A stretch of 64,000 nucleotides of DNA, taken from assembly GCA_963753495.1 (NCBI GenBank), contig CAVWCO010000025.1, forward strand, positions 320,223 to 384,222. The letters are read 5' to 3'. Numbering within the stretch: position 1 is the first letter of the stretch; every line of letters starts with the position of its first letter. The DNA comes from an uncultured Bacteroidales bacterium. Its GTDB lineage: Bacteria > Bacteroidota > Bacteroidia > Bacteroidales > VadinHA17. Shown piece by piece: positions 1-64,000 of the stretch. Below the pieces are notes generated by a model. The model made no database searches. It saw nothing but the letters and a program-made list of their open reading frames with translations, and was not told the DNA's origin. The translations under genes were made by a program, and so were the position numbers.

Positions 1-513
1 TCCTCGATACTCTCAGGATCATAACACCCGCAGTTTCCAAGTACTATCCGCTTCTGATTTGCAAAAAAAGGCAATTCGTTTATAAAGGAGATGCCGGGCC
101 AGAATTCAAATCCTTTGGAACCTGTCTGGCCCAGAAGATCATCTTCATTTATATCATTATGAAAAACACCGTTAAGAAGGGGCTCAACCTTTTCCTCGGT
201 TATGTTCCGGAAGAAAAGCTTGTTTTTACCCGGCATCTGAATACAGACCATTGGCTCATAGTTTGCAGGTCCGGAACACCCAACCCTTAACTGTGAGGGC
301 CGTTGGTTCATTCTCTTCAACATATAACTTTACCGCATTGAAAGTTTTATCAGAGCCCGCAATTATGCTGCTTGTGTTTGATGAAATATGGATCACAGGT
401 ACATTGGTTTTATCGCGACGCACCTGCTGCAATACCTTTTCAGTTTCGGACGGAAGGGTATCGGATTCAAATAACAGCACCTTATCAATAAGGAATGTCT
501 TTAAATCTTCCAT
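1..513 (-). CDS. NuoF-like NADH-binding subunit (HydB/HndC type) of a multimeric [FeFe]-hydrogenase or NADH dehydrogenase. Only the N-terminal region is present, including a thioredoxin-like-fold domain. The gene continues past the window start, and the frame breaks near 240-270.
   Basis: The reverse translation of 1..236 gives MPGKNKLFFRNITEEKVEPLL...FINELPFFANQKRIVLGNCGCYDPESIE. The RIVLxNCGxxDPESI box is characteristic of the region just before the NADH/FMN domain of NuoF-family proteins. ORF 256..513 (MEDLKTF...VKGWVFRTCKL) lies in an adjacent frame and resembles the N-terminal Trx-like domain of HndC-type proteins. However, the usual Cys positions read SSNTSS. Confidence 0.5.
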
Positions 514-516
514 TTA

Positions 517-946
517 ATCATTATCAATAATAAACTTAAGCTTCTTAATAAGGGCCGGAACCTGCTCGGCACGTATATGTATCTGGTATTCACCATTTAC
601 CATTATTACAGGGCCATGATAGCAGCCTCCAAGGCATGTGACGATATCAAAGCTGAAGTTCCCGTTCCTGTGTGGTTTGTCCCGGCGAGATTTTCAGCTC
701 CTCTTTGAATTTATCAATAATGGCCTGGGAGCCGTTCATAAAACACGAGGTGCCATGGCAGATTTTAAGATGAACCTTGCCTGAAGGAATGAATCTGAAC
801 TGGTCGTAAAATGTAGCCAGTCCGAATATTTTGGTTGTGCTCAGGCCAAGGTGGCCTCCCACTCTTACTATTGATTCTTCCGAAAGATATCCGTTTTCAG
901 CCTGTATCTCCTGTAACAGCGGGATAAGATCTTCCCGTCCGGCCAT
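517..946 (-). CDS. NuoE-like thioredoxin-like [2Fe-2S] subunit (HydC/HndA type). Two frames join near 660-665.
   Basis: ORF 647..946 carries a NuoE N-terminal region ending in CHGTSC...ISPGQTT. The continuation in the +1 frame (about 517..660) reads NGNFSFDIVTCLGGCYHGPVIMVNGEYQ, which is the second Cys pair of NuoE. Confidence 0.7.
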
Positions 947-1047
947 GTTTATACTTTTTAAGAATTAATATCGAGATCTGCTGCCATTACTAACCTAACT
1001 GATAATGCCAATACAAATATAATAATATTTATTGTTAATAAATAAAC

Positions 1048-1065
1048 ATTGTTATTTTATTAACA
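1048..1065. promoter_or_regulatory. Candidate Rex-type (redox-sensing repressor) operator TTGTTATTTTATTAACAA, in the divergent intergenic region between the two hydrogenase-related operons.
   Basis: The site is an 18-bp near-palindrome with one mismatch to the TTGTTAANNNNTTAACAA consensus reported for Rex in anaerobes. A second half-site, TTGTTAATAAA, lies at 1031-1041. Confidence 0.35.
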
Positions 1066-1160
1066 ATAAAACAAATTGCCATTATCTTCTGTCCTGTATT
1101 AAAAGACTTAAGAATATATTATTACATTTGAGATTGTATTGTTCCCTGATTAAAGTGGAA

Positions 1161-1415
1161 ATGACCCAAAGGATTGAAATGCAGATTTGTCTTGGCAGTT
1201 CCTGTTTTTCGAGAGGTAACAGGGATGTTGTTGCATTTATCAGGGAGTACCTCAAAAAGAATCACCTGGAGGACCGGATCATCTTTAAGGGAGCCAGATG
1301 CATGAACCTTTGCAGCAATGGTCCGAACCTCAGAATTAACGAAAGGATTATCGAAGGGGTCACTCTCTCGAAAATTGAAGATATCCTGGAAAAGGAATTT
1401 GGAAATATTAAATAG
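1161..1415 (+). CDS. Small thioredoxin-like [2Fe-2S] ferredoxin of the NuoE/HydC-like fold.
   Basis: MTQRIEMQICLGSSCFSRGN...KGARCMNLCSNGPNL shows a CxxxxC...CxxxC pattern and is about 84 aa. I placed the start at ATG 1161, because the upstream part of ORF 1032.. is AT-rich promoter sequence. Confidence 0.55.
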   Translation: MTQRIEMQICLGSSCFSRGNRDVVAFIREYLKKNHLEDRIIFKGARCMNLCSNGPNLRINERIIEGVTLSKIEDILEKEFGNIK

Positions 1416-1436
1416 AGAAACACTCCGGTAATCAAT

Positions 1437-20321: not shown

Positions 20322-21737
20322 TATTCTCCCGGAGCACGATACAGCTCAATATTGGATATTAGCGGACATGCTTTTGAACTGACGATCGTTACTTTTATCT
20401 TTGATGTTCTTACCACAGGGAATTTCCGGATCACTTTGTAACCTATTGTTGTCCCATCGATCAACGTCTTCCATTCACCTTCAACCAGTGCTTCAACCTT
20501 AAATTCACTGTACCCGCTGTCCCAGCCTGATATATTCCTGAAGCAGTACCCTGTTCACTTCCGTCTCAGCACCAAGATCAATTGTAATGCTTGCCGATTT
20601 GATATCATCAGGTGTTGACCAGTAAGTTTCAGGATTCCCGTCATTGACGTTCAATGCCTTATATCCTTTCCCCCTGTCGCTGGATGAGGTTGCCTTCTTC
20701 CCTTTAGCCAGTTCATCAGCAAATTCGCTTACTCGTAATTCCCTGAAAGCCAGAAGGGATTTCACATCATTTTCATGAAGCAATCCTCTTCTGTCGGGAG
20801 GAACATTAAGAAGAAGATTACTGTTTCTGTCCGACTGATGAGTAATAAAGTTCCATAAGGTTTTCAGGGACTTCGTACAAGCGAATCCTGTGCTGATGAT
20901 AAAACCAGCCCGGCGGATTGAGACATCCACTTCGGCAGGCACCCAGTAATTTCCATCTTCATGTCCTTCGCCAAGTATCTTTGCAAAATCACCACCCGGG
21001 TACATTTCATCTTTTTTCAGAAGGCACCAGTTTGTAAGGCTGCCCATTCCGCTTTCATTGCCTACCCATCTTATATCAGGTCCTGCATCACTGAACATCA
21101 CTGCAAATGGCTGAAGCTCCCTGACAATTTTATGAGTATTTGGCCAGTCATAATATGTTTTATTATCAATTCTTCGTGTTTCCCTGGCTCCGCCATAATA
21201 ACCGTCTCCGCCATTTGCGCCATCGAACCAGACCTCAAAAATATCCCCATAGTTTGTAAGAAGTTCATGTAAGCTGATTCCTGTAATAGTTAAGGTATTC
21301 AGGAGTTCCGTAGACAGCACTGAATTCCTGTCCCACGGCGAAAGATAAACACCCATCTTCAGTCCATATTCATCACAGGCCTTCCTGAGTTCTTGTAAGA
21401 CATCACCTTTCCCGTCTTTCCAGGGTGAGTTTTTCACCGAATGTTCAGTAAATGCAGATGGCCACAGGCAGAATCCATCATGATGCTTTGCAGTTATTAT
21501 AATGCCTTTCATTCCGGCTTCTTTTGCAACTTTTGCCCATTGCCGGCAATCGAGTTCTGAAGGATTAAAAACTGATTCGTTTTCATCACCATATCCCCAC
21601 TCTTTATCTGTGAAAGTATTAACAGTAAAATGGACGAACATATAATACTCCATTTCGTGCCAGGCAAGCTGACGTTCAGAGGGTAACGGACCAAAGGGTT
21701 CAGGAGGCTTAACCTGTGCACATGAGGAGAATAACAA
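20322..21737 (-). CDS. GH29 alpha-L-fucosidase with a C-terminal F5/8 type C (discoidin) domain. There is a frame break near 20510.
   Basis: ITAKHHDGFCLWPS and the GH29 core in 20505..21737. A discoidin-like tail (ALNVNDGNPETYWS...) continues in the adjacent frame to about 20322. Confidence 0.8.
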
Positions 21738-21788
21738 TTAAGAAAAGAAATGACAAAATCTGATTTTCATATTAGTATATTTAATATT

Positions 21789-21879
21789 CCTCTGTGTAAC
21801 TCTTGCCTCTCTGTGTACTCTGTGTAACAGAATTTATAAACTTTCACTGAGTCACAGAGGATCACAGAGAGACACAGAG
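21789..21879. repeat. Hairpin repeat element, CACAGAG variant, 3 units per arm.
   Basis: CTCTGTGTAAC TCTTGCCTCTCTGTGTA CTCTGTGTAAC, a loop, then GTCACAGAG GATCACAGAGA GACACAGAG. It lies between the tandem minus-strand GH29 and DUF1080 genes. Confidence 0.65.
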
Positions 21880-21929
21880 AATAAAATTATCTTTAGAAAG
21901 ATCTTTTATTCTAATATTTCTGAATTTAA

Positions 21930-24900
21930 CTACTGAACCATGTCCGAGGAAACCAATATGTCCGGTTTTATTTTTAAGACCCGGATGATCATTATGATCC
22001 ATTGTACCGTTATCCCTCGGGCCGGCAATATCTCCATCAACAATAACAGTTCCGTTAAGAGTAATCTTAATCTGTGTCCCTTTAACATATACTTCCTCAT
22101 AATTCCATTCCCCACCGGTTTCTGAAATCCTCGTCTTGCAGGAATCACACCATAAACTGATCCATGATACTGGTATGGCTGCAGAGTTGCATAAACAGGG
22201 GCAGTATCATCAAGGATCTGAAGTTCCATCCCTACATAAGCTGCATCGCCCTCCAGCGGAGCCCTTATTCCCAGTCCGTTATTTGCTGCAGGAGTAAGCT
22301 GAAACTCAAACCTGAAAACAAAATCGGCATATTCCTTCTCAGTATAAAGATTTCCGCCACTGCCATTTTCAGGTTTTATAACTATCATTCCATCTTCAAC
22401 CACATATGATTCTTTGTTTCCGGTCCAGTTATCCAGATTTCTCCCGTTAAAGAGTGCAACAAATCCTTCAGATTTTTCCTCAGGGGTAAGATTATAATCC
22501 TTTTCACTTATTTCCCTTACATAAATATCCCTGAAAGCCAGGTCGGTGCCATGAGCCTGCAGTTCAATCGGTCCTTTCGGGAAGATAGGAATTTTACGGT
22601 CCCAGTAGTTCTCCATGGTTACATTGTCAACAACAAGTTCGCCATTAAGCCATACTGATACTTTCTCTCCAATCATGACTATCCTGAAGGTATTCCAGTC
22701 GCCTACCGGATTATCTGCAACCTTAAGTGGTTTTGAAGGATTCACCTGGTTATTGTACAATCCTCCGGAACCAACCTGGGCTCCCACATCAGTTCTCGAA
22801 GTATCCCATATCTGAACCTGGGGTGTTCCCCTGAGGTAAATACCGCTGTCGCCGTCTTTTGTGATTTTCCAGTCGACAAGCATTTCAAAATCACCATATT
22901 CAACTATTGAACAAAGATTATTGCCCTTCCCGTTAAACCAGATGCAGCCATCTTTAACACTCCAGTTTGCGGGGACCATAACATTTGCTTCTGCCTGTTT
23001 CCTTTCAAGCTCAACCCTGCTCATTCTTTGCTCGGGCAACGGGATTTTCGACAAGGCCCTGCCAGCCTGTAAGATCGATGCCATTGAACATCGGTTTAAA
23101 TCCTTCATCCGGTGGCATGGCTGCCAGATATTTATTGACCATTTCCCTGTCATATTCACTTTCAGGACCTGAAAGCTATGGGACTGCTTTAGTCAAGAAT
23201 TTCCCTTACAATTGTCCCATACATCCCTGTTTTTGAATTAACAGAAGGAAGAGCAATATACATTGCTGCTTTTGCTGCTGCAGCTGATGTTGCAGGATCG
23301 TCAAGATAGTCGGCAACAAAAAAGAGAGTCTGGTATGTTTTAAGTCTTCCCAGTTCAGTCAAGAACTTCATTTCTGCGCTCAGGGCTAAGGGCGAAAGGC
23401 ATTATTTTACGGTAAAGCAACAATTTCTGTTCATCTGGTAAAGCTGATGATCTTACCTGTCTGCACATAACCTTCAAAAGCAGGCTCTTCAAAAGTCTTA
23501 TTCCCTGAAGCACAGATCTCATAAAGTGCTGAAGAGGCAGTATAATCACGCCATGAAGTGAGTGTTTTGAAGCATACATCCCTTATGTCCGCATTCCCGT
23601 TCTCAAATTCCTTCAGAACAACTGCAAGTGCCTCTCTTCCGCCTGTCTTTGCAAGAACCGGAATAACTTTATCTTTCCATGGCTTACCTTCCATGGCCTT
23701 AAGGATTTTTTCCGATCTCTTTTCCGGATCAGCTATTCCGGATGCTGCTGAGGCAAGCGCATTCTGAACATCGGAAACATATGCCTTTTCTGTCGTTATT
23801 GAAAGAAGTTCAATTAATTTATCCTGATCTTCAGGCTGAGCAATTTCAGCCAAAGCTTTAAAAGCTGCTGATTTAACGCTTTCATCTGAATAGGAGGTAA
23901 ATGGTAAAATATCGTCAAAATATTCATTCCCCTTTTTCCAGGCCATCAGTTCAATTGCACTTTTTTTCGCAGATGGCGGACCATCTTTCAGAACAGGTCT
24001 CAGCAGAGCTATTTCATTGTTTCCTGAAACGGTCATTAATCCTGATTTAGCTGCTTCCTGATCAAGAGTATCAGGGAATTTCCCCATATACTCAATCAGT
24101 GCCGGTACTGCTTTATTTCCGCTTAATCTGACCAGCGCATCCGCAGCTGCAATCCTGACTGCCCTGTCGGGATCGGAAAGAGAAGAATTTATCAGAGGCA
24201 ATGGCAGTTTCATCGCCGCTATTTCCGAGCATTGTGATAATTTCAGGTTTTGCTTCAGGTATTGCTTTGGGAAAATACGCAATCCATTTTGCATTGATCT
24301 CATTCCCCGGAATGTCGAGAGATGACTGAAATGCAGCATTCCTGTATGTTTTATCAGGATGGCTGGCAGCTTTTATAAGAACTTTCATGGCATCAATTCC
24401 GTGAAAGCTGACATAAATCTTAAGAGCAGCTGTTTTATTCTGAATTGTAAGCTTATCGTTGCATTTGTTCATGACAGCTTACAGATTTTATCCATTGTTT
24501 TAATATCACCGTTTTGCCCGACATTATCTAGCATAATTCAGCAATGCGGATGTTGCGCCGGTATGGTCCCATCTGTACATGGCATCGCTTGCAGCTTTTG
24601 AAAGTACCGGATAAGCCAGGGGACTTGCGCTCTGTGCCAGTGCATTGTAAGCTGAAGCTTTTGTGTTTACATTTATATCCTTTGCCCATACAATATATTC
24701 ATTAACAGCCAGCTGCGATTTCATGACTAGCCAGAGCATTCATAACTGCTGCAGCACATGGAAGTTCTTTATTTTTAAGCGATTCTGCCAAAACACTCTC
24801 TGCTGTCTTTACCGCCAATTGCCAGAATTGCTGCCAGTGCAGGTCCGCACATCTCTTTATCCTGCAGGTAATGCTTTCATGGATGCAACTGAGGCTTCCC

Positions 24901-25297
24901 CTCCGATAAGCTGAAGCTGTTTAATAAAGAAATCCTTGACACCATTGTCCTTCTGACTGGTGGCATAACCGATACAGATTTTTTCCCACATTTCTTTCTG
25001 CAGATTGCATTTCCGTTCTTCGACAGAAACCTTGAGAGACTTTCGACGGCAAACCTTGCTTTTGTATCATCACCTGTTCCGGCAGGTATTATCTGATCGC
25101 AGATCAGTCTGATCCCAGCTTCGCCCAGGGCAAGCATATCTCCCATAAGCTTGTCAGTATATCCAGCATCATTTGCCGGAAACCGGGCAAGAAGATCTGC
25201 GACCTTTGTTTCAGGTAGTCCTTTTATCCTGAGAATAAGAAACAGCTGTAATCAAAAGGAATAGTAAGGGCAGTAATCAGTGTTCTTATGATTTTCA
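21930..25297 (-). pseudogene. Large secreted lipoprotein with N-terminal HEAT/PBS-lyase repeats and two C-terminal DUF1080 (3-keto-disaccharide hydrolase-like) domains, broken into at least 8 ORFs.
   Basis: A signal peptide MKIIRTLITALTIPFDYSC begins at 25297. HEAT repeats (AVRIAAADALVRLSGNKAVPALIEYM) are in 23431..24472 and 24524..25146. The tandem DUF1080 region is 21930..23159. The DUF1080 start FNGIDLTGW continues from the HEAT C-terminus in the adjacent frame near 23100. Confidence 0.55.
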
Positions 25298-25299
25298 TA

Positions 25300-26609: not shown

Positions 26610-26644
26610 AATTGAGTTATTTCTAATTTAACGAGATTTACTTT

Positions 26645-27789: not shown

Positions 27790-27882
27790 AATTATATAGG
27801 TTTAAGGGTTCTAGGTTTTATTCCGGCCCTTTGAAGGGTGGTCAGGGGGATGTGAATTAAGGTTGTGGTACTTAGCAAATAG

Positions 27883-36923: not shown

Positions 36924-39031
36924 ATGAAAAAAACTGTTCTTCTTATTGCAATTGTTACCATGGTATTAACTTCATGCAAACAAAAAGTGAAAAGTGATAA
37001 TCCGTTACTCAATGAATTTGAAACCCCATTCGGGGTTCCTCCGTTTGAACTTATAAAAGCTTCTCATTTTATGCCGGCATATCTGAAGGCTTTTGAAGAG
37101 CAGAAAAAAGAAGTACGTAAAATAATAACCAATAAACAGGCACCTGATTTTGAAAACACAATAAAAGCCCTTGAATACAGCAGTGAGCTCCTGACAAAAG
37201 TCAGCAGGGTCTTCGGTTCACTTAACTCAGCCAATACAAATGATTCATTACAGGCTATAAATCTGGAGATTGCACCTCTTTCATCAAAGCACAGGGACGA
37301 TATCAACCTGAATGACACACTTTTTCAGAAAGTTAAATCGGTTTATGAAAACAAGGATAATTTCAAGCTTACAGAAGAGGAACAGAAGGTGCTTGAAGAT
37401 ACATATAAAGGATTTGTAAGGAACGGGGCCGGGTTATCGCCGGAAGATAAGACCAAGCTCAGAAAGATAAACGAAGAGCTGTCGCTTCTCTCAGTGAAGT
37501 TCGGTCAGAATCTACTGGCTGAAACCAATGCTTTCAAACTGATTATTGATAAAGAGGAGGACCTGGCCGGATTGCCCGAAGGAGTTATTGCACAGGCAGC
37601 ATCAGCAGCTGAAAAAATGAATCTCAACGGGAAGTGGGTATTTACAATTCAGTATCCGATAATGGAACCATTCCTTAAGTATTCTGAAAAGCGTGAGCTG
37701 AGGGAAAAGCTCTTTACAGCATATTTCATGAAAGGAGATAATGGCAACGAAAAGGACAATAATGAAATTATATCCAGGATTGCAAAACTCAGGATTGAAA
37801 GATCTATACTTCTCGGATATAAAAGCTATTCGGATTTTGCCCTTGAAAGAACAATGGCAAAAACTCCTGAAAGGGTAATGGATTTCCTGGGTCAGGTTTG
37901 GAATGCGGCTTTGCCTGTTGCAAAAGCGGAAGCTTTGGCCCAGCAGGAACTTATTGATAGGGAGGGAGGTAAATTTCAAACTTCAGCCCTGGGACTGGTG
38001 GTATTACACCGAAAAGATCAAGAAGGAGAAGTATGCACTTGATGATGAGATGATCAGACCATATTTCAGGACGGAAAATGTTATTGATGGAATGTTTTAT
38101 GTCGCTAACCGGCTTTATAACCTCAGTTTTACAAAAAGGACCGATATCCCGAAATATCATCCGGATGTTGTCACATTTGAAGTGACCCGCGATAATGAGC
38201 ATGTAGGAATCCTGATGATAGATAACTACCCGCGTGCCTCAAAACGTGAACGGAGCATGGTGCGGAGCATACAGAGGGCAGAGCCGCGACATTAAAGGCA
38301 ATATGATTCATCCTGTGGTCACAATGGTTACAAACTCAACTCCCCCGACAGCCGACAAACCTTCACTTCTTACACCTGATGAAGCAAGCACTCTCTTTCA
38401 TGAGTTCGGACATGCGCTTCATCAGCTTCTTTCAAACTCAACTTACCCGGGCGTTTCAGGAACGTCTGTTGCGCGCGATTTTGTCGAGCTGCCCTCACAG
38501 ATAATGGAACACTGGGTGCTTGAACCGGAGGTGCTTAAGGTTTATGCAAAACACTATCAGACAGGAGAAATAATTCCGGCTGAAATAATTGAAAAACTTG
38601 ACAAAGCCGGAAAGTTCAATACAGGATTCACAACCGTCGAATTCCTGGCGGCTGCTCTCCTCGATATGGAATATCATATTCTGAATGAACCTGTTGATAT
38701 TAATATACGCGATTTCGAAAAGAAGGCAATGGAAAAATACGGACTTATGCCTGAAATCAAGCCAAGATACAGATCAACATACTTTAACCATATCTGGAGT
38801 TCAGGTTATGCCTCAGGCTATTACAGCTATTACTGGAGCGAAATGCTTGATGCTGATGCCTTCCAGGCGTTTAGGGAGACAGGCGATATTTTTAACAGGG
38901 AAGTTGCCGGCCGATTTGAAAAAGAGATCCTCTCAAGAGGAGGTTCAAGGGATCCACTTGACATGTATATCGCTTTCAGGGGAAAAGAACCCGGAATTGA
39001 CGCCCTGCTGGAAAACAGAGGTCTGAAATGA
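36924..39031 (+). CDS. M3-family peptidyl-dipeptidase Dcp / oligopeptidase A-like lipoprotein, split into 3 ORFs.
   Basis: Signal MKKTVLLIAIVTMVLTSCK. The HEXXH motif is HEFGHALH in 38234..39031. Pieces are 36924..38042, 37903..38295 and 38234..39031. Confidence 0.8.
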
Positions 39032-41180: not shown

Positions 41181-41845
41181 CTATTGTAAGCTCAGCAAGC
41201 CTTTTTTTATCAAGAATCTTAAGGTATTTACCTCTTGTACTGATTATTCCTGCGTTTTCCATTTCACTGAGAACCCTCGCGATCGATGGACGCGCAACTC
41301 CAAAATATTCAGCAATTTCGTTTTGAGTCATTTGCAGGGTGATCTCTGTCTTATCGTCACCGGCAGACTGAAGAATAATTGTGCCAGTTTACCCCTTATT
41401 GTTTTAAAATTAAGGAACTTAATTTTTGCAGAAAGGAATTGGGAGCGGTTAGAGATCATATCCAGAAAATTTGCAAGGATCTTATCGCTGTATTTCAGGA
41501 ACTTAATGAATTGGATTTTTCTATTAAAAGGATTTCTGTTTCCCTGACTGTGACCACATTAACCGGGAAGCGGTTTCTGGTTCCGAAAATAAATGCTGCT
41601 GCGATGGCCCCGGGAGCAGGAACATCCTCTATTTTTATAATCCTGCCGGAATAATCGATCATCTCTCCCTTGACCATTCCGCTTATTACCATCATAAAGA
41701 AGTTAACAGGATCTCCGCTCTGTGCAACTAATGCTCCTGGCTTGTATTTCCTTAGCTGATATTGAGTTACAGAAATTGCAGATTCCACTTCCTCAAGTGT
41801 CAATCCACTGAAAACAGGTGCATTTAAAAGAATTGAATAATCCAT
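41169..41845 (-). CDS. Crp/Fnr-family transcriptional regulator (cNMP-binding domain plus HTH). Frame breaks fall between 41390 and 41500.
   Basis: The cNMP-binding domain is in 41495..41845. The HTH region QNEIAEYFGVARPSIARVLSEMENAGIIS reads in the adjacent frame over 41169..41390. There is no N-terminal Cys cluster, so it is Crp-like rather than Fnr-like. Confidence 0.7.
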
Positions 41846-41942
41846 ATTTTTTTCAGTAAAATTAGCAATTGTAACATATGTTACAATTTACTTGCTTAAC
41901 ATTTTTCATTTTTGTATCTGAAATTATAAATAATTACATAAA

Positions 41943-42817
41943 ATGAAAAGAGACATTCTTAAAATAGACGAGGAGCTTTGCAATGGCTGCGGACAATGTG
42001 TCCCGAACTGCCATGAAGGAGCATTGCAGGTTATCGACGGAAAGGTAAGGCTGGTAAGTGAACTGATGTGCGACGGGTTAGGTGCATGCATCGGCCATTG
42101 TCCTGAAGGTGCAATAACAATCGAAAAGAGGGAAGCTGAGCCTTACAATGAAATAAAAGTAATGGAACAAATGATCATCCAAAGGAAAGAACACAATAAT
42201 TGCTCACCTGAAGCACCTGAAGGATCATGGTGAAACAGGATTTCTGCAGGAAGGGGTCGGCTACCTGAAAAACAATCAGGAAATTCTTAGTTTCGACCTG
42301 ATGGAGGTTATGCACGAAGTTCATAATCAGGGAAATCACCAGGTTACATGCCGGAGGAGGCTGTCCCGGCTCACGTGCAGTTGTGATAGAAAAACCAGAT
42401 ACTGATGACAACAGACTATCTGCAACCGACCAGCCTTCTGAATTAAGGCAATGGCCTGTTCAGATGCATCTTCTTAATCCAAATGCTCCCTATTTAAGGG
42501 GAGCAGATCTGCTTCTCGCTGCCGATTGTGTGGCTTTTTCAATGGGAAATTTCCACAGCAGACACCTGAAAGGAAAATCACTGGCAATTGCCTGTCCCAA
42601 ACTTGACCATGGAACTGACATTTATATTGAGAAGCTAACTGCAATGATCGATATTGCAAAAGTGAATACAATTACAGTAATGATGATGGAAGTGCCCTGC
42701 TGCGGAGGATTACTTCAGATGGTAAGGAACGCCTCATCCAGAGCAGCAAGGAAAGTTCCGGTAAAACAGATGATAATCAGCCTTTCAGGAGAAGTACTGA
42801 AAGAAGAATGGGTCTGA
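41943..42817 (+). CDS. Iron-sulfur protein with an N-terminal 2x[4Fe-4S] ferredoxin domain and a C-terminal Cys-rich domain (CPGGGC...CCGG). Frame breaks occur between 42230 and 42360.
   Basis: [11 protein letters not shown] and [12 protein letters not shown] in 41943..42233. The intervening frames encode [18 protein letters not shown]...[18 protein letters not shown], joining into 42383..42817 (…AADCVAF…CPKLDH…EVPCCGG). I could not assign a family. Confidence 0.45.
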
Positions 42818-42980
42818 TATGATATATATCATCTGGTAATTTCAAAAATTGGTTCCTATCAAAAAAATACATATTTTAGCCGCCCGATTGCAGAATTGAA
42901 GGAGTTTTAATTTAAAATATAAGATATGACCAACAATAATAGAGCAGGTAAAATCAGATAATCAGAAGTTTTACCTGGGT

Positions 42981-45900
42981 TTGGATATCGGTTCAGTTTC
43001 GCTTAACACGGTACTTTTAGATGAAAAATATAATGTCATTGAGGACTATTATGATTATGTTCATGGAAAACCATTCAATGTACTAAAGGAGAGGCTCACA
43101 TCAATTCTGAAAAATCATCCTTCCGGAACCATTACAGGAATTGCCGTTACCGGAACAGGCGGCAAACTTGCAACTGAACTTATCGGAGGAGTATTTGTAA
43201 ATGAGATAATTGCCCAGGCAACATCCACAGGCAGATTATATCCCGATGCTCAAACAGTTATTGAAATTGGAGGAGAAGATTCAAAACTTATAATTCTTGA
43301 AAAGGATCCTTCAAACGGGCATTCCCGACTGGTCGATTTTGAAATGAACAGTATCTGTGCTGCAGGAACAGGATCATTTCTTGATCAGCAGGCACGGAGG
43401 ATAGGAGTTCCGATTGAGAAGGAGTTTGGAGAAATGGCCATTGAAATCTGTTGATCCTCCCCGGATTGCAGGAAGGTGCAGTGTTTTTGCAAAGAGCGAT
43501 ATGATCCACCATCAGCAGATTAGCAACTCCCTTGCATGATATTGTTGCAGGATTATGTTTTGCACTTGCCCGTAATTTCAGAAGCAATGTGGCAAGAAGC
43601 AAGGAGATTAAGAAACCAGTAATTTTCTCAGGAGGTGTTGCAGCAAATATAGGAATGATCAGAGCCTTCAGGGAAGTTCTTGACCTGAATGAGGATGAAC
43701 TGATTATCCCGGAGCATCATGCCTCGATGGGTGCGATAGGAGCAGTAATGTATGCGCGTTCCAATAATCTTGAGATGAACCATTTCAAGGGGATGGAGAA
43801 GCTGGAAGAGTATCTTGCAGATGACTCAACAGCATTTCAATAGCCTCCCCCAGCTTAAAGAATCAGAGGCAGTCTACAATAAAGTAGTCCATTTTAGAAA
43901 GAATGGAAAAGAAAAGATCCATGTTTATCTTGGTATTGATGTAGGATCGCTGAGTACAAATGTTGTTCTTATCGATCCCGATCATAATGTAATTGCAAGG
44001 CGCTACCTGCCAACTGCAGGAAAACCCCTGGAAGCTATCCAGAAAGGGATGACTGAGATCTTATGATGAGGTTGGTGAAGCATGTTGAAGTTATCGGAGC
44101 AGGCACAACAGGATCAGGCAGGTACCTTACAGGCGATTTTATCGGTGCCGATACCATACAGAATGAGATAACAGCTCAGGCAACTGCTGCAATTGATTAT
44201 GATCCGACTGTTGACACAATTTTTGAAATCGGGGGACAGGATTCAAAATATATCAGCATTGAGAATGGTGTGGTTGTCGACTTTGAAATGAATAAAGTCT
44301 GTGCTGCAGGAACAGGATCATTCCTTGAAGAGCAGGCTGAAAAACTGAATATCAATATTGTTGATGAGTTCGGATGCATGGCACTTGAACTCAGAGTGCC
44401 CGGTAAAGCTGGGCGACAGGTGTACTGTTTTCATGGAATCGGACCTCAATTCATACATGCAGAAGGGTGCAAGGAATGAAAACCTTGTCGGAGGACTTGC
44501 TTATTCAATTGTTTATAACTATCTGCAGAAAGTTGTTGCTGACCGAAAAGTCGGAAACAAAATATTCTTCCAGGGAGGTGTTACAAACAATAAAGCTGTT
44601 GTTGCTGCATTTGAACAGGTTACTGGGAAAGAAAATAATCATTCCTCCGCATTTTGATGTTACCGGTGCTATCGGTGCAGCTATCCTTGCCCAGAAGATC
44701 AATGACAAAAGGGACAGAAAACCACATTTAAAGGTTTCGGAATCAGAAATGTAACATATGAAATCAGCAGGTTTTCATGCCAGAGCTGTGCCAACCATTG
44801 TGAGATCAGAAGAGTGAAAATTGCAGGGGAAAAGAAATCCCTGTTTTATGGCGGAAGGTGTGAAAAATATGAAACTGACGGCCGGAAAAAAATAGCGAAT
44901 AATATCCCGAACCTGTTCAACAAAAGAACAGAGATGCTGATGGAGGGATATCAGGAAAAACGAACCGGGAAAGACCCCACAATCGGTATCCCAAGGGCAC
45001 TGATGGTATTTTACCAGCAGTTCCCGTTCTGGCGTACATTTTTTGAAGAGCTCGGATTCAGGGTAGTAATTTCAAGAGAATCGGATAAAGTCACTTGTCA
45101 GTCAATCAATTGAGACAATGACAACCGAAACATGCCTTCCTGTGGAACTCATGCATGGTCATGTAATTGATCTTATTGAAAAAGGAGTTGATTATATCTT
45201 TCTTCCATTTATTGTAAATGCCAAATTCAGGGAAGGCAACAAGACATTCAACTGCAACTGCCCATGGATTCAGACTTATCCGTTTATGGTAAAGGCAGCG
45301 CTTAAAGGGAAGATTGATGAATCAAAACTGTTGATGCCGACACTTCATTTCAGATTTTTTGAGCGGGCTCTCGTAAAAGAGATGACTACTTATTTCAATG
45401 AAAAATTCGGGATAAGCAAGGAAGAGATTAAAAAAGCCATTTACAAAGCCGATGGAGTTCAGGTATCATTCGAAAAAAGTCTTGTGGAATACGGCAGGGA
45501 TGTTCTTAAAAAATATCCCTGAAAACTGCAGGCCGGTTGTCCTGCTTGGAAGACCCTATAACAGCACTGATCCGCATCTCAATCTTGGACTTGTTGAAAA
45601 GCTTATTACCCAGAATGTAATGCCTATCCCGATTGATATGCTCGACCTGACACCTTACAATATTTTTGAACAATTACAGGAATATGTACTGGCCAAATGG
45701 CCAGAAGATCATTGCAGCTGCCCAGCATGTGGCAAAAACAGATGGATTATATGCTGTTTATCTTAGCAATTTCCGGTGCGGACCCGATTCATTCATATGG
45801 CATTATGTAACTGAAGAGCTGAAAGGTAAGCCATTCCTTCATCTTGAGGTAGATGAACACTCTGCCGATGCCGGTATGGTAACACGTATCGAAGCATTCC

Positions 45901-47190
45901 TCGACAGTCTGAAAGGCTCAGAACAGAATGAGAAGAAGGATGTTAAGATCTTCAGACCGCGTCCAAGTCCATCATCTCCGCCCAAAGACAGGATACTGTA
46001 TTTTCCTTACATGAACGACGGAGCTTACATGATCGCTGCAGCTGCCAGAAGCATCGGCGTACCTTCGGAGGTTCTGCCGCGGCAGGATGAAGAAGACCTG
46101 GCAATAGGAAGAAAATACACTTCATCGAAAGAGTGCTTCCCGATGATATGCACAACCGGAAGCTTCATCAAAAAATTACAGGAACCCGGAGCGGATCCTT
46201 CAAAAATGAGCTTCTTCATGCCTGATCATAACGGTCCCTGCAGGTTTGGACAATACAATCAGTTTCACAGGATACTCTTTGACCGGCTGGGATTTGAAAA
46301 AGCAGAGCTCATTACCCCTTCAAATGATACTTCTTATGAAGATATTGCCGGGGAACATGGCCAGAAGTTCAGGATCAATGCATGGAAAGGATTTATTGTT
46401 GCTGATTATATAAGGAAGATCCACAGGGAGACAAGGCCTTACGAGATCAATAAGGGTGAATCGGACAGGCTATACCAGGATGCAATCCATCGACTTGAGA
46501 GATGCATTGAAAAGGGTGCCCGCGGACTTCATAAGGTGCTGGCCGGAATAGCAGCAGATTTTATGGCAATAAAAGTCGATAAGAGTGTAAGAAAACCGGT
46601 TGTGGCTATTATCGGGGAGATATTTATGCGCGATAATTCAGGCTGTAACGGCAATATTGCCAACCGGCTTGAAGATCTTGGTGTTGAGGTTGTTATCGGG
46701 CCATTCTCCGAATGGATATATTATTCCACATACCGTTTTACCCGCGACAGCAGGTGGAAAAATGATATAAAGGGAATAATTAAATCCAAAATCCAGGGAT
46801 ATCGGACAGGATGTAATTGCAGAATCATTATTGAGGGGGATTAAGAAATTCACCGACCATGAAAAAGATGTATCACTTCATGAAATGCTGAAGTTATGCA
46901 ACACTTATGTGAATGAGTTTTATGACGGTGATCCTCCGATAGCCATGGGTACTTCAGTGGCCCTGACAAAAAGAGGTGTTTCAGGTCTGGCTGCAATTCT
47001 GCCATTCACCTGTATGCCCGGAACTCTTATAGCTTCAGTAAGCGATTCATTCAGGAAGGACCATAATAATATTCCTTTCATAAACATAGCATACGACGGA
47101 CAGGATTCAGTTTCACTTGATACAAGGCTGCAGGCATTCGTATTCCAGGTGAAGGAGTTTGCAGCTATATCAGAACCAGTGCATGCCTGA
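42981..47190 (+). pseudogene. Giant acyl-CoA-dehydratase-activase-related protein. It has two BadF/BadG/BcrA/BcrD ASKHA ATPase domains and a DUF2229/HgdB-like domain (YjiL-YjiM-like fusion), and is broken into at least 11 ORFs.
   Basis: ASKHA motifs MDIGSVSLNTVLLD...ICAAGTGSFLDQQA (42981..43454) and LGIDVGSLSTNVVLID...CAAGTGSFLEEQA (43815..44479). The Cys motif CQSCANHCE is near 44790. DUF2229-like regions are in 45118..47190. Confidence 0.65.
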
Positions 47191-55085: not shown

Positions 55086-58000
55086 CTATCTCCTTGCCTC
55101 CGATTCAACTTCAGCACTGGCATCAGTGAGACTTTCATACTCTTCGAGCGATCCCACTATAATGCTGTTATATTGACGCTGTCCGGTTCCGGCAGGAATT
55201 AGATGACCCACGATTACGTTTTCTTTCAATCCTTCAAGCTTATCGACCTTTCCAAGTATTGCGGCTTCATTTAGGACCTTTGTAGTCTCCTGGAATGATG
55301 CAGCCGAGAAGAAACTGTTGGTCTGAAGAGCTGCCCTGGTAATACCCTGGAGTACCTGATTTGAAGTTGCTGGTACTGCATCTCTTGCATCAACGATCTT
55401 TAAATCACGGCGTTTCAGAACGGAATTCTCATCCCTGAGCTTACGTGCCGTTACTATCATTCCCGGTCGCATGGTCTGGGAATCGCCGCTTTCCACAATG
55501 TATTTCTTGCCATAGATCCAGTCGTTTTCGTCCATAAACTCAAGCTTATCAACAATTTGGCGTTCAAGGAATTTAGTGTCGCCCGGATCGATAATTTCAA
55601 CTTTTCGCATCATCTGCCGCACGATGGTTTCAAAGTGTTTGTCATTGATCTTCACACCCTGTAACCGGTATACTTCCTGGATCTCATTTACAATATACTC
55701 CTGGACCTTTGTAGGACCCTTGATTGCAAGGATGTCGGAAGGAGTAATAGCTCCATCGGACAAAGGAATCCCAGCTTTTACATAATCATTTTCCTGAACA
55801 AGAATCTGTTTTGAGAGCGGTACAAGGTATTTCTTGATTTCCTCGGTCTTCGACTTTATCGAGATTTCCCTGTTGCCTCTCTTAATTTTACCGAAAGTGA
55901 CCTCACCATCGATCTCGGATACTATTGCAGGGTTGGAAGGATTACGCGCTTCAAACAACTCGGTAACCCTTGGCAGACCTCCGGTGATATCACCCGATTT
56001 CCCTACGGCTCTTGGTATCTTGGCCAGGACCTCACCAGCTTCAACCATCTTATCTGTTTCCATCACAAGGTGCGATCCTACAGGAAGGTTATATAGTCTG
56101 AGCTCATCACCTTTTGGTCCCAATATTTTAATCGCAGGGTTTTTGGTTTTATCCCTGCTTTCTATTATCACCTTTTCCTTAAAGCCTGTCTGTTCGTCAG
56201 ATTCTTCACGGAAAGTAATACCTTCGATGAGATAATCGTATGCCACTTTCCCGGCAAGTTCGGAAATAATCACTGCATTGAACGGATCCCATTCGCAGAT
56301 CAGTTTTCCCTTCTCAACTTCCTGTCCAGGTTTAACATAAAGTTTTGAACCATAAGGAATTGTATGAGTTGTCAGAGCAATTCCTGTTTTCTTGTCTATT
56401 ATTCTAAGCTCGGCAAGACGACCAATAACAATATCAATATTACCTTTCTCAATATCTTTCCTTGGAACCGAACGGATCTCCTCAATCTCGGCAATTCCGC
56501 TGTATCGGGCAACCAGGCGTGATTCAGTCATTATATTCGAAGCGGTACCTCCCACGTGGAATGTACGGAGGGTAAGCTGTGTTCCGGGTTCTCCGATACT
56601 CTGTGCTGCTATGACACCAACTGCTTCACCTTTCTGGACCATACGGCCGGTGGAAAGGTTACGTCCGTAACATTTTGCACATACACCTTTTTTGGATTCG
56701 CAGGTAAGAACCGAACGGATCTCAACGTGTTCTATCGGGGAATCTTCAATTTTCTTAGCCAGTTCCTCAGTCAGCTCCTGTCCGGCCTCCACGATCTGCT
56801 CACCGGTAAGAGGGTGGAAAACATCGTGGACAGTTGTCCGTCCCAGAATCCTTTCATAAAGTGATTCAACAACCTCCTCATTTTTCTTTATAGCCGTGGC
56901 CACCAGACCTCTCAGTGTCCCGCAGTCCTCTTCATTAATAATTACATCCTGTGACACATCTACCAGACGACGGGTAAGATAACCTGCGTCAGCTGTTTTA
57001 AGAGCGGTATCGGCAAGACCTTTACGCGCACCATGAGTTGAAATAAAATACTCCAGAACCGACAGTCCCTCCTTAAAGTTCGAAAGGATCGGGTTTTCAA
57101 TGATCTCGGATCCGGATGAACCTGATTTCTGAGGTTTTGCCATAAGGCCTCTCATTCCTGAAAGCTGGCGGATTTGTTCCTTTGAACCCCTTGCTCCCGA
57201 GTCGAGCATCATATAAACCGAATTGAAACCCTGCTTGTCGTTCGAAAGCTGTTTCATAAGCGATTGTGTCAGCCTTGCATTAACATGTGTCCAGATATCA
57301 ATAATCTGGTTGTATCGTTCATTATTGGTTATGAATCCCATGCTGTAGTTGCTCAGCACTTCTTCAACCTGTTCATAGCCCTCGGTTACGAATTTAGTTT
57401 TTTCCTCAGGTATAATAACATCGTCAAGGTTAAATGACAATCCTCCTTTAAAAGCTGAATAGAATCCAAGGTTCTTTATAGCGTCAAGGAAATCAGCTGT
57501 TTTAGCTGTACCTGCCAGTTTCAGAACGCGGCCGATAATATCCCTGAGTGATTTCTTGGTGAGGATCTCATTAATAAATCCAACCTCATAAGGTACAACC
57601 TGATTAAAGATAACACGCCCTACAGAAGTTTCAACAATATGATTGACCAGTTCTCCATCGACCCTGTCATTTACTTTGACCTTTATTATTGCATGGAGAT
57701 CTACTTTACCTTCATTATAAGCTATATTGACCTCCTCGGGGGAATAAAATACAAGGCCTTCACCTCTTACTTTTTCCGTTGCAGTGCCTTTCCTCCCTTT
57801 GGTAATATAATACAGACCCAGAACCATATCCTGGGAAGGAACGGTTATCGGTGCTCCGTTTGCAGGATTAAGGATATTATGGGATGCCAGCATAAGCATC
57901 TGGGCTTCAAGTATGGCCCCATTTCCAAGCGGAAGATGTACAGCCATCTGGTCGCCGTCGAAGTCGGCGTTAAAAGCCGTACAAACAAGAGGATGCAGCT

Positions 58001-59378
58001 GTATCGCCTTACCTTCTATCAGTTTTGGCTGGAAAGCCTGTATACCAAGCCTGTGAAGTGTAGGAGCACGGTTAAGAAGTACCGGATGACCTTTGAGTAC
58101 GTTTTCAAGAATATCCCAGACAACAGGATCTTTGCGGTCAACTATTTTCTTTGCAGATTTAACTGTCTTTACAATACCGCGTTCAATAAGCTTCCTGATA
58201 ATGAATGGCTTATAGAGTTCAGCAGCCATATCCTTTGGCAAACCGCACTCGTGAAGGCCAAGTTCAGGACCCACAACGATGACAGAACGGGCTGAATAAT
58301 CGACCCTTTTACCAAGAAGATTCTGGCGGAATCTGCCCTGCTTGCCTTTCAGGCTGTCGCTAAGAGACTTAAGAGGACGATTGGCATCCGTCTTTACTGC
58401 ATTTGCTTTTCTCGAGTTGTCGAATAATGAATCGACAGCTTCCTGAAGCATACGTTTTTCATTTCGAAGGATAACTTCGGGAGCTTTGATCTCGATAAGT
58501 CTTTTAAGACGGTTATTCCTGATTATGACCCTTCTGTAAAGGTCATTAAGGTCGCTTGTCGCAAAACGTCCTCCGTCGAGAGGAACAAGTGGCCTTAATT
58601 CGGGCGGTATAACAGGTACAACTTTAATAATCATCCATTCAGGTTTGTTGACATGTTTTGAGTCCCTGAATGCTTCAACGACCTGAAGGCGCTTCAGCGC
58701 TTCATTTTTCCGTTGCTGTGAGGTTTCGGTATTTGCCCTGTGGCGAAGAGTATATGAAAGTTCATCAAGATTGATACGGCTAAGCAGCTTATACAATGCG
58801 TCTGCCCCCATATCGGCTACAAACTTATCGGGGTGATTATCCTCAAGATACTGGTTTTCTTTCGGAAGCGATTCAGTTATTTCAAGGTACTCCTCTTCAG
58901 TAAGGAAATCAAGGTATTTAATCCCGTCGACTGCTTTGACGCCAGGATTTATTACTACATACCTCTCATAATAGATTATCGAATCAAGTTTCTTTGTCGG
59001 AAGTCCCAGAAGATACCCTATCTTATTCGGCAATGAACGGAAATACCAGATATGAGCAATCGGGACTACAAGTGAAATATGTCCCATACGTTCCCGGCGC
59101 ACCTTCTTTTCAGTAACTTCTACACCGCAACGATCGCAGACGATCCCTTTGTAACGGATCCTCTTGTATTTTCCGCAATGACACTCATAGTCCTTTACAG
59201 GTCCAAAAATCCTTTCGCAGAATAATCCATCCCGCTCAGGTTTATAAGTCCTGTAGTTTATTGTCTCAGGTTTAAGCACTTCACCGCTTGAACGATCGAG
59301 GATCTCCTCCGGTGAAGCAAGACCAATCGAGATTTTTGAGTAACTTGTTTTTGTTTTGTTATCTCTTCTGAATGACAT
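55086..59378 (-). CDS. rpoC: DNA-directed RNA polymerase subunit beta-prime.
   Basis: An intact 1430-aa ORF with the NADFDGDQM catalytic motif and zinc-finger cysteines. Confidence 0.97.
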
Positions 59379-59428
59379 ATACTGAATTTTATTTATTCAA
59401 TTATTATAAATAGTAATACTGAGGATGG

Positions 59429-62400: not shown

Positions 62401-63239
62401 TGTTCAGATTCGATTACTGTTTCCCTGTCGAGAATTACCTCATTTCTTTCAATTGAGACAACTTCACCGGTATCCTCATCAACAAAGTCCTCAACCCATG
62501 TTTTCAGAACCCTTGCTGCAAGTTTACGGCCAACAAGCTTTTTAATGTTTGTTTTTGATACCTTATGTTCTTCCGCAAGGTTGAAAATTTCGAGGATTTC
62601 CTTGTCACTCTCAAAACCGATAGCCCTTAGCAGTGTTGTTACCGGAAGCTTTTTCTTCCGGTCGATATATGCATACATCACATTATTGATGTCGGTTGCA
62701 AATTCGATCCAGGAACCTTTGAAGGGTATAATCCTGGCTGAATAGAGTTTGGTGCCGTTTGCATGGATGCTTTGTCCGAAGAATACACCGGGAGATCTGT
62801 GCAGCTGAGATACAACAACACGTTCTGCCCCGTTGATTACGAAAGTGCCTCTTTCGGTCATATAAGGCACTGTTCCGAGATATACATCCTGGATGACAGT
62901 ATCAAAATCCTCATGTTCAGGATCGGTGCAATAGAGTTTGAGCTTTGCTTTAAGAGGAACGCTGAATGTCAGTCCGCGTTCAATGCATTCTTCTATTGTA
63001 TAGCGGGGAGGGTCGATATAATAATCGAGAAATTCAAGAACAAAATTATTTCTTGTGTCGGTAATTGGAAAGTTTTCTGTAAAGACCTTAAAGAGTCCTT
63101 CTTTTTTCCTGTTTTCGGGAGTGGTCCCAAGCTGGAAAAATTCTCCGAACGATTTCAACTGAACTTCCAGAAAATCGGGGTAATCAAGCTGATTTTTCCT
63201 GGAAGCAAAACTAATTCTTTCAGTATTTTTTGAGGACAT
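59429..63239 (-). CDS. rpoB: DNA-directed RNA polymerase subunit beta, with a single 1-nt frame break near 60990.
   Basis: ORFs 60903..63239 and 59429..61090 overlap. The sequence ...KGQVL|[16 protein letters not shown]... is restored by removing one nucleotide in cttaacag. Confidence 0.95.
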
Positions 63240-63283
63240 TTATAAAAGGATTAAGTGAACTTATAATATAAAGAACGAAAAGG

Positions 63284-63310
63284 CTTAGTCCCGGATTCCC
63301 GGGACTAAAC
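63284..63310 (-). terminator. Hairpin in the rplL-rpoB intergenic region, attenuator-like.
   Basis: TAGTCCCGGattcCCGGGACTA followed on the transcribed strand by a T-rich tract. It is analogous to the known rplL-rpoB attenuator. Confidence 0.4.
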
Positions 63311-63335
63311 CTACAACCCAGATAACAGGTATAAC

Positions 63336-63713
63336 TTATTTAAGTTCAACTTCAGCTCCTGCTTCTACTAATTGACCTTTAATAGCTTCTGCTTCTTCTT
63401 TTGATACACCTTCCTTAACAGGGCCGGGAGCGGCGTCAACGACTGCTTTAGCTTCTTTCAGTCCAAGTCCGGTGATATCCTTAACCAGTTTAACTATCTG
63501 TAATTTCTGACCGCCAGCTGCTTTCAGGATAACATCAAATGTTGTTTTCTCTTCAACTTTGGGGGCATCGCTACCGGCTGCCGGACCTGCAACAGCTACT
63601 GCAGTTGCAGCGGGTTCAATACCATGCTCTTCTTTAAGTATTTTTGCCAGTTCGTTAACCTCTTTAACAGTCAGGTTTACAAGTTCTTCTGCAAATTTCT
63701 TAAGATCTGCCAT
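63336..63713 (-). CDS. rplL: 50S ribosomal protein L7/L12.
   Basis: An intact 125-aa ORF with an Ala-rich hinge and the C-terminal EAKAVVD...[11 protein letters not shown]. Confidence 0.95.
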
Positions 63714-63745
63714 TTTTATAGAATTTTAATTTGATTATACTTTAA

Positions 63746-64000
63746 TTATTCTTCTTTTTTTGATAGTGTTTCAAGAACACCATGTAATTTATTTCCGCCT
63801 GATTGTAAAGCTGATATAACATTCCTGGCAGGTGACTGAAGCAGGAGAATAATATCTCCGATCAGTTCCTGTTTAGTTTTGACGGAGACAAGTGTGTCAA
63901 GTATATGATTCTCCGACATAAACTGATTCCTGAACGTATGCACCTTTGAAAACAGGCTTATCATGTTGCTTCCTGAACTCCTTTAATGAGTTTGGCAGGA
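63746..64000 (-). CDS. rplJ: 50S ribosomal protein L10, C-terminal part only. It continues beyond the window and has a frame break near 63915.
   Basis: 63746..63964 encodes the L10 C-terminus (…LLQSPARNVISALQSGGNKL…). Upstream, the adjacent frame reads LPNSLKEFRKQHDKPVFKGAYVQESVYVGE. Confidence 0.85.

Follow-up and report, generated by a model that had tools for sequence, protein, structure and literature searches.

Frame breaks across a 64-kb stretch of an uncultured Bacteroidales contig very probably reflect consensus errors of the assembly

The window, the whole 64,000-nucleotide stretch of an uncultured Bacteroidales contig that was analysed here, carries rpoB, rpoC, rplL and rplJ, a BcrAD/HGD-D gene, and a sugar-utilisation and glycyl radical enzyme (GRE) island. 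Searches for tRNAs and Rfam families gave no hit in it. Frameshift-aware alignment of its genes to orthologues gave about 107 frame events, made up of 81 of +1, 5 of +2 and 21 of -1. The total ranges from 101 to 108 with the frameshift penalty, because a few close compensating pairs (11339/11362, 20866/20891, 31711/31751) depend on that penalty. Every event was paired with a nucleotide-level gap against the closest relative. A preliminary description of this DNA had counted 55-60 breaks, about half as many. Its view that shifts of 1-2 nt join adjacent ORFs into recognisable proteins was borne out over the whole window.

All indels were 1-2 nt and nothing longer was seen. Insertions outnumbered deletions by 86 to 21 (ratio 4.1), single extra bases made up 80% of events, and the mean rate was about 1.8 per kb of coding sequence. 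All genes aligned essentially end to end with their orthologues, with truncations and large deletions absent, and these alignments showed no long indels and no IS elements at the broken genes. The corrected frames held one in-frame stop in 19,755 codons. The features, in order of position, are as follows.

9379-10777, minus strand: MBL/beta-CASP nuclease gene, where an extra A (position 9490) lies 36 codons upstream of the stop
20500..36250, no strand: dense error block 1 from segmentation, 58 events in 14.4 kb of coding sequence (4.0 per kb)
21892-23757, minus strand: DUF1080/3-keto-disaccharide hydrolase gene, 5 events
23176..23178, minus strand: sole genuine in-frame stop (TAG); the window reads CCATAGCTT and the related contig L081 reads CCAATGCTT
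23917-25276, minus strand: HEAT_2 gene, 8 events
27886..28823, minus strand: ROK-family kinase gene, 311 aa, with 5 single-base insertions inside 235 nt (28480-28712)
32916..35283, minus strand: PFL2-family GRE gene, 789 aa, with 8 single-base insertions and 1 deletion; dN/dS 0.061
35415..36215, minus strand: GRE activase gene (radical SAM, 266 aa), 7-8 events in 0.8 kb
37973..38248, plus strand: two extra bases in the M3 peptidase gene, both missing in contig L087, where the gene is intact (701 aa)
41250..45750, no strand: dense error block 2 from segmentation, 16 events in 4.3 kb (3.7 per kb)
42926..47187, plus strand: BcrAD_BadFG/DUF2229/HGD-D fused gene, 1416 aa, free of stops, with 13 insertions between 42942 and 46799 (12 of +1, one of +2)
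55095..59390, minus strand: rpoC, zero frame events in 4.3 kb
60989, minus strand: extra base in rpoB, where the plus strand reads ccctcTgttaag; it splits the gene into ORFs of 778 aa and 553 aa
63907 and 63982, minus strand: two extra bases in rplJ (G and T, respectively)

The genes that had been singled out as heavily damaged were indeed so: 13 events fell in the BcrAD/HGD-D gene, 9 in the PFL2-family GRE, 8 and 5 in HEAT_2 and DUF1080, and 5 in the ROK kinase. The BcrAD/HGD-D gene is the one previously called YjiL/YjiM-like. Its protein is 95% identical to the orthologue on the JGI contig L084, and its dN/dS is 0.048. For the GRE, the identical 9 events were recovered using six JGI references, and six references concurred on the ROK events. 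The former "HEAT/DUF1080 lipoprotein" is two genes, DUF1080 and HEAT_2 (21892..25276), on which eight homologues and the JGI references agree. Three equally damaged genes had been missed: the GRE activase, which has the highest event density in the window (8.7 per kb), the fucosidase gene (5-7 events) and the cytidylate-kinase-like gene (4-6). The difference from L081 at the stop (23176..23178) fits either two substitutions or a -1/+1 pair side by side.

Among the genes listed earlier as unbroken, rpoC, the 7TM kinase, the second GntP gene, PP2C and the metallophosphoesterase kept that status; the MBL nuclease has one break, at 9490. For rpoC, the window mean predicts 7.7 events, but the sparse segment in which it lies, with 0.68 per kb, predicts only about 2.9.

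Essential genes are also affected. The rpoB break had been placed near 60990 as cttaacag, which is the minus-strand reading of the site at 60989, and the rplJ break had been placed near 63915, corresponding to the extra base at 63907; the second rplJ lesion is new. Since rpoB and rplJ are broken, the assembly itself contains indel errors, as had been stated. Maf, UbiA-family and PdxB-like genes carry lesions too. The 778-aa RpoB fragment was found as such in a public protein collection, from one 738,079-nt NCBI/ENA contig.

We then characterised the inserted and deleted bases. In 62 of the 83 single-base insertions the extra base differs from both neighbours, compared with about 47 expected if random (P ~5e-4), and 17 of the 21 deleted bases do likewise. 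Several breaks had been said to sit in short homopolymers. We found no association but a depletion, with 4 of 83 insertions in runs of at least 3 against about 15 expected. An origin by homopolymer slippage was rejected, since inserted bases avoid homopolymers. The inserted bases (G 24, T 21, A 20, C 18) were indistinguishable from a uniform draw or from genome composition. No common motif or slippery sequence was found around the 107 sites. Published Nanopore consensus errors are mainly homopolymer-linked; in contrast, the insertions in the window are depleted in homopolymers and outnumber deletions 4:1. Without a link to homopolymers, the events do not resemble the systematic Nanopore errors typical of the literature, and this counts against a consensus-error origin.

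Breaks per gene were overdispersed (chi2 = 123.4, 47 df, simulated P ~1e-5), as had been proposed. Segmentation gave five segments with event rates of 1.0, 4.0, 0.5, 3.7 and 0.7 per kb. The five-segment regional model had a BIC of 1559 against 1587 for a homogeneous one; on coding coordinates, a gene-specific model reached 1667 against 1571 for the homogeneous model. Gene-level dispersion partly persisted after the five segments were fitted (P = 0.02). Block 1 comprises consecutive genes on both strands: fucosidase, DUF1080, HEAT_2, GFO/IDH/MocA, MFS, ROK, malic enzyme, cytidylate-kinase-like, NfeD, Band_7, PFL2-type GRE and GRE activase. Block 2 takes in Crp, an Fer4 protein and two thirds of the BcrAD/HGD-D gene, counted from its start, and ends on the right within that gene, where 12 of 13 events precede 45750 (binomial P = 0.036). 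The clustering, which had been attributed to accessory metabolic genes, is described better by region, in two blocks, than by gene class, and BIC strongly prefers the regional model. Of the four segment boundaries, one is inside a gene and three are close to gene ends, and "region" and "gene set" are therefore not fully separable by position alone.

The insertion:deletion ratio was the same in dense and sparse regions (58:16 and 28:5, Fisher P = 0.60). Insertions unlike both neighbours made up 47 of 55 (85%) in dense regions compared with 15 of 28 in sparse ones (Fisher P = 0.003), which hints at more than one error component.

To place the events among relatives, we compared the window with related contigs. 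JGI metagenome contigs, which are presumably short-read assemblies, were unbroken at all sites: L086 (94-95% nucleotide identity), L084 (84-90%), L087 (97.3%) and six further contigs. The events of dense block 1 were reproduced with JGI references. The only conspecific reference is L087, which covers a sparse block, and the dense blocks were compared with more distant relatives. When metagenomes were searched for short-read copies of the dense GRE block from the same species, the relatives returned were no closer than 87% in nucleotide sequence.

Contigs of the ENA type gave a different picture from the JGI contigs. L083 and the JGI contig L084 are 99.4% identical and are separated by 6 indels; in 6 of 6 the extra base is in L083. 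L081, an independent related long-read contig of 22 kb from an ENA metagenome assembly, carries 27 insertions and 5 deletions (4.1 per kb). When its events were compared with those of the window, only about 4 of 26 and 31 coincided against about 2.4 expected by chance. Inheritance in common was rejected, as the overlap is at chance level. The two contigs are also not hit hardest in the same genes: MFS carries 9 events in L081 but 2 in the window. Among genomes, the closest relatives are Microflora Danica Nanopore MAGs, which were assembled with metaFlye and one Medaka round and whose low-coverage members show reduced coding density according to their authors (PMC12313526). Near-finished R10.4 assemblies require about 40x coverage (PMC9262707).

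Taken together, the results make it very probable that the breaks are consensus errors in the deposited long-read-style metagenome assembly and not mutations of the organism. They look like the product of one error process rather than of errors plus gene decay. On this reading the genes themselves are intact, functional orthologues of related Bacteroidales genes. The events show a single position-blind process that inserted single bases, and less often removed them, about 1.8 times per kb of coding DNA. Its intensity would vary over stretches of 5-15 kb, most likely through local read support, which could be lowered either by low depth or by reads drawn from part of a strain mixture. The 4:1 insertion excess may come from a polisher that, at low depth, is biased towards retaining insertions. 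Low-coverage long-read MAGs (Nanopore/Flye/Medaka; the "IDEEL" signature) are similar in that 1-2-base indels split ORFs everywhere, essential genes included. As in the window, the error rate of such MAGs depends on contig and region, and short-read relatives are intact (PMC12313526; PMC9262707).

A cause other than low depth, strain collapse, is an unlikely but live candidate. Here the consensus would retain both alleles side by side, giving a one-base insertion, and conserved genes such as rpoB and rpoC would be spared, having few strain SNPs. The most conserved genes, rpoB and rpoC, are nearly clean; inserted bases are mostly unlike their neighbours, above all in the dense blocks; and a single ENA metagenome assembly, ERZ25039502, contains several related lineages, L081 and L082 both being from it. 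However, the insertion slots are not concentrated beside third codon positions. Slots 3|1, 1|2 and 2|3 hold 32, 23 and 19 insertions, with no codon-position preference, and 40 of 56 insertions unlike both neighbours touch codon position 3, against a chance expectation of 67%. Break density is also uncorrelated with dS or dN between relatives. Because the codon-slot distribution is near uniform, an origin of the insertions as strain SNPs with both alleles kept was rejected as the main cause.

Far less probable is a two-layer origin, in which background assembly errors (about 0.3-0.7 per kb) underlie genuine recent pseudogenisation of accessory metabolic genes, the decaying set being the sugar-utilisation and GRE island and BcrAD/HGD-D. 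The preliminary description had similarly read the accessory-gene excess as genuine decay in a host-restricted lineage. Event density is about 6-fold higher outside rpoB, rpoC, rplL and rplJ, the dense blocks contain mostly dispensable catabolic genes, and the positions of the segment boundaries and the unequal neighbour-difference share of insertions also fit two layers. Pseudogenes are expected to show nonsense mutations and relaxed constraint. However, dN/dS is not elevated: broken genes lie at 0.02-0.12, unbroken genes at 0.02-0.18, and there is no correlation with break density (Spearman rho -0.06, P = 0.69); BcrAD/HGD-D, with its 13 breaks, is at 0.048. At 3-10 neutral substitutions per indel, the ratio used for the expectation, 14-47 in-frame stops would be expected, and one was observed. 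A decaying layer is also contradicted by the lack of truncations, long indels, IS elements and a slippage or homopolymer signature, by the equal insertion:deletion ratio in both layers, by the rate shift inside the BcrAD/HGD-D gene, and by L081, which carries such lesions at other sites and in other genes.

The insertion bias is opposite to that of real pseudogenes. Curated bacterial pseudogenes have 300 insertions to 396 deletions (about 0.76) and power-law indel sizes, and the 86:21 of the window departs from this with a binomial P of 3e-15 (PMC6054270). The pseudogene-rich genomes of the host-restricted Ca. Burkholderia leaf-nodule symbionts resemble the window in having many genes with several frameshifts each. 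In those symbionts about half of the pseudogene insertions form direct repeats (PMC6054270). Unlike their pseudogenes, with a ratio of about 0.76 and power-law sizes, the window shows a ratio of 4.1, indels of 1-2 nt, one stop and dN/dS of at most 0.12. The comparison of dN/dS and break status with relatives that had been suggested gave no relaxed selection in broken genes and no breaks in the JGI relatives. The decay reading was not upheld, given dN/dS, the single stop, the full-length genes, the insertion bias and L081.

Real, tolerated insertions, through programmed frameshifting, RNA-level correction or a non-viable lineage with insertion-biased mutation, are scarcely credible: all that favours them is that the deposited sequence contains the breaks, against the missing shared motif or slippery sequence at the 107 sites, the absence of any site conserved in a relative, the randomness with respect to codon position, the lesions in rpoB and rplJ, and the lack of an Rfam element in the window. 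Programmed frameshift sites such as those of prfB and dnaX likewise need a +1 or -1 shift for the full protein, but such sites are rare, recur in orthologues and go with a slippery or stimulatory motif, whereas the sites here have no common context and none is common to relatives. That the insertions exist in the DNA of the population is extremely improbable; if they did, they would imply either very recent insertion-biased, non-slippage mutation in two blocks, or frame-restoring recoding or editing.

The finding is thus almost certainly an ordinary one, an assembly artefact rather than gene decay. All gene calls here need repair. The importance is practical and not biological: about two thirds of the genes in the window are mis-called in the public record, and truncated fragments, such as the 778-aa RpoB and 392-aa DUF1080 pieces, are already in protein databases as singleton clusters. 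In similar long-read MAGs, insertion-biased, non-homopolymer errors and a density that changes from block to block can serve as warning signs. Without polishing or frameshift correction, pseudogene counts, metabolic reconstruction and inferences of "genome decay" based on this MAG would be wrong.

About 44 genes accompany rplJ-rplL-rpoB-rpoC in the window, which comes from a Bacteroidales bacterium. Among genomes scanned at one per species, the closest rpoC relatives were uncultured Bacteroidales MAGs (94% amino acid and ∼80% nucleotide identity), several of them Microflora Danica long-read MAGs. The window proteins occur unchanged in a public protein collection, the truncated RpoB fragment of 778 aa among them, and all derive from one NCBI/ENA contig (738,079 nt). 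The breaks therefore belong to the deposited assembly. Syntenic relatives obtained by homologue searches and contig look-ups together span nearly the entire window, and eighty JGI and ENA metagenome contigs were further references around the PFL2-type glycyl radical enzyme (GRE).

Syntenic reference contigs
L085: ENA contig, 85-92% nt identity, window 0-18.5 kb
L086: JGI, 94-95% nt identity, window 6.0-18.4 kb
L082: ENA sample ERZ25039502, window 10-33 kb
L081: ENA sample ERZ25039502, window 19.5-27.8 kb
L083 (ENA) and L084 (JGI): 84-90% nt identity, window 29-51 kb
L087: JGI, 97.3% nt identity, window 36.8-41.1 kb
L001, L003, L005, L008: window 45-64 kb

A purpose-written protein-to-DNA aligner that permits frameshifts was used to align the closest orthologues of 48 genes, one per gene, to the window. 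Across 59.4 kb of coding sequence this gave 107 frame events. In 81 of them the window has one extra base (+1); a further 5 are +2 events and 21 are -1. The 55-60 breaks of the preliminary description were about half of this number. Under a much stricter frameshift penalty 101 events were left, and nucleotide alignment to the closest relative showed a matching gap at every event. The same events were seen against as many as six independent JGI references and against eight DUF1080 homologues. Five of the six genes earlier listed as unbroken have no event, the exception being the MBL nuclease.

Frame events per gene
13: fused BcrAD_BadFG/DUF2229/HGD-D gene (BcrAD/HGD-D), 42926-47187, + strand
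9: GRE
8: HEAT_2
7 each: GRE activase, fucosidase
5 each: DUF1080, ROK
4 each: GntP-1, GFO-2, cytidylate-kinase-like
2: rplJ
1 each: rpoB, MBL nuclease
0 each: rpoC, 7TM kinase, GntP-2, PP2C, metallophosphoesterase, YgjP-like, NUDIX, aldolase, rplL and a few small genes

The breaks and their overdispersion among genes are real (chi2 = 123.4, 47 df, simulated P ∼1e-5), as the preliminary description had held. A piecewise-constant rate model placed breakpoints near 20.5, 36.25, 41.25 and 45.75 kb.

Frame events per kb by segment
0-20.5 kb: 1.0
20.5-36.25 kb: 4.0
36.25-41.25 kb: 0.5
41.25-45.75 kb: 3.7
45.75-64 kb: 0.7

These segments were preferred to a homogeneous rate (BIC 1559 vs 1587). On coding coordinates, one rate per gene had a BIC of 1667 vs 1571 for a homogeneous rate. 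The overdispersion is regional. The first dense block takes in many genes in a row, from both strands; the second ends, on its right, within BcrAD/HGD-D, with 12 of the gene's 13 events before 45.75 kb (P = 0.036). The zero count of rpoC is unremarkable at the rate of its own segment (∼2.9 expected). Residual dispersion after the fit (P = 0.02) had small genes as outliers (the 2Fe-2S protein, the activase and rplJ).

Genuine decay of accessory genes, proposed earlier as a layer over assembly errors, was not borne out. The dN/dS against the closest orthologue was 0.048 for BcrAD/HGD-D, 0.061 for the GRE, 0.034 for DUF1080 and 0.12 for the activase; the unbroken kinase and metallophosphoesterase genes gave 0.106 and 0.18. 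Overall, dN/dS was uncorrelated with break density (rho = -0.06, P = 0.69). The 19,755 codons of the corrected frames hold a single real in-frame stop, a TAG at 23176-23178 (- strand) in the DUF1080 gene, where the window reads CCATAGCTT and L081 reads CCAATGCTT (Met). It resembles a one-base deletion next to a one-base insertion (a -1/+1 pair). Random substitutions create stops in 4.4% of cases, and even at a background ratio of 3 neutral substitutions per indel ∼14 stops are expected (P of one or fewer = 1e-5). No long deletions, truncations or IS insertions were found in the 48 aligned genes, all of which align essentially end to end.

The lesions also differ from those of curated bacterial pseudogenes, which have 300 insertions vs 396 deletions, power-law indel sizes with a mean deletion of ∼19 nt, and direct repeats formed by about half of the insertions (PMC6054270). 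The window has 86 insertions and 21 deletions, all of 1-2 nt (binomial P = 3e-15). The insertion:deletion ratio was no different between dense (58:16) and sparse (28:5) blocks (P = 0.60), which argues for one process of varying intensity and not for two layers.

Related contigs served as controls. L081, which is another contig (22 kb, ENA assembly ERZ25039502) and ∼88% identical to window 19.5-27.8 kb, has 27 insertions and 5 deletions (4.1 per kb). On the same reference residues, its 31 events and the 26 of the window share about 4 positions, and ∼2.4 are expected by chance. In L081 the MFS transporter gene is hit hardest, with 9 events vs 2 in the window; the aldolase gene has 3 in L081 and none in the window. 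Between L083 and the 99.4% identical L084 there are six indels, all six being extra bases in L083. Event rates are 0-0.2 per kb in the longer ENA contigs L082, L083 and L085 and zero in the JGI contigs. In the conspecific L087 the M3 peptidase is intact, and the window there differs by exactly two extra bases.

Some gene calls in these contigs also differ. Two extra bases of L083, T at 6208 and T at 6257, lie close to the 5′ end of its GRE gene (3882-6050), whose product is called at 722 aa vs 789 aa in L084. In L082, a 410-kb contig, the GFO/IDH/MocA gene (7162-8431) is called as two, of 138 and 276 aa. L082 probably carries a frame error here too, because JGI contig L094 reads through the gene in one continuous frame, stop to stop with the start unchecked. 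The GntP-1 orthologue of L086 (4796-6236) is called at 396 aa vs 453 aa in L085 and the window, and where the 5′ part is missing an ORF of 83 aa runs antisense. The start site may have been miscalled, or the gene may truly differ.

The preliminary description had placed several breaks in short homopolymers, a link that did not hold. Runs of at least 3 hold just 4 of the 83 single-base insertions, vs ∼15 expected (P = 2e-4). Sixty-two of the 83 differ from both neighbours, with ∼47 expected for random bases at random sites (P ∼5e-4), as do 17 of the 21 deleted bases. Such insertions make up 47 of 55 (85%) in the dense blocks vs 15 of 28 (54%) elsewhere (Fisher P = 0.003), which suggests more than one error component. 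Collapsed strain haplotypes may create insertions, but the near-uniform codon-position slots (32, 23 and 19) lend this no support. No motif common to the 107 sites was found. The pattern is not that of replication slippage, of the homopolymer-linked errors for which Nanopore is known, or of a programmed frameshift site.

The lesions are short and recent, are mostly insertions made without regard to context, and are neither inherited nor present in relatives assembled independently. They are probably stochastic read errors left in the consensus at places of low read support. The dense blocks, at 5-15 kb, would be on the scale of long reads, and the insertion bias could come from a polisher prone to keep inserted columns at low depth. 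This model leaves the excess of neighbour-unlike insertions in the dense blocks and the general homopolymer avoidance unexplained. The Microflora Danica long-read catalogue was made with metaFlye and a single Medaka round, and low-coverage MAGs in it are reported to have a reduced coding density (PMC12313526). Near-finished quality of R10.4 assemblies takes ∼40x coverage (PMC9262707). This context supports an origin in low read support; the window may or may not come from the Microflora Danica project.

Several gene neighbourhoods were also noted. Window 32916-47187 is conserved and syntenic with L083/L084 3882-18058, and a large part aligns in several JGI contigs. It holds the GRE, its activase, an M3 peptidase, a 7TM-DISM histidine kinase, a Crp-family regulator, a Fer4 protein and the 1416-aa BcrAD/HGD-D protein. 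The 700-nt intergenic region between activase and peptidase (36216-36923) has many length differences from L084, a conserved small ORF (54 aa in L084) and no Rfam match. At window 1-4513 (L085 1-8192), a FeFe-hydrogenase-like protein (625 aa) is directly followed by a PP2C/SpoIIE phosphatase and adjoined by NuoF-like and 2Fe-2S thioredoxin-like genes; L085 has an extra protein with a hydrogenase large-subunit domain and HisKA/HATPase_c. These genes may form a regulatory module that senses hydrogen. Between GntP-1 and the GFO/IDH/MocA gene, the window has a 14-nt tandem duplication relative to L085 (12224-12237, AGAGTTTGGAGTTT).

Two truncated products are singleton clusters in the public protein collection: the RpoB N-terminal piece (P0363, window 60906-63239) and a 392-aa DUF1080 piece (P0001, window 21933-23159) read in the wrong frame over its last ∼60 residues. 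Assembly errors have therefore spread into protein databases. The assembly-error half of the earlier interpretation is supported. The breaks are an artefact of the deposited assembly and of low biological interest, and the practical consequence falls on users of its gene calls.
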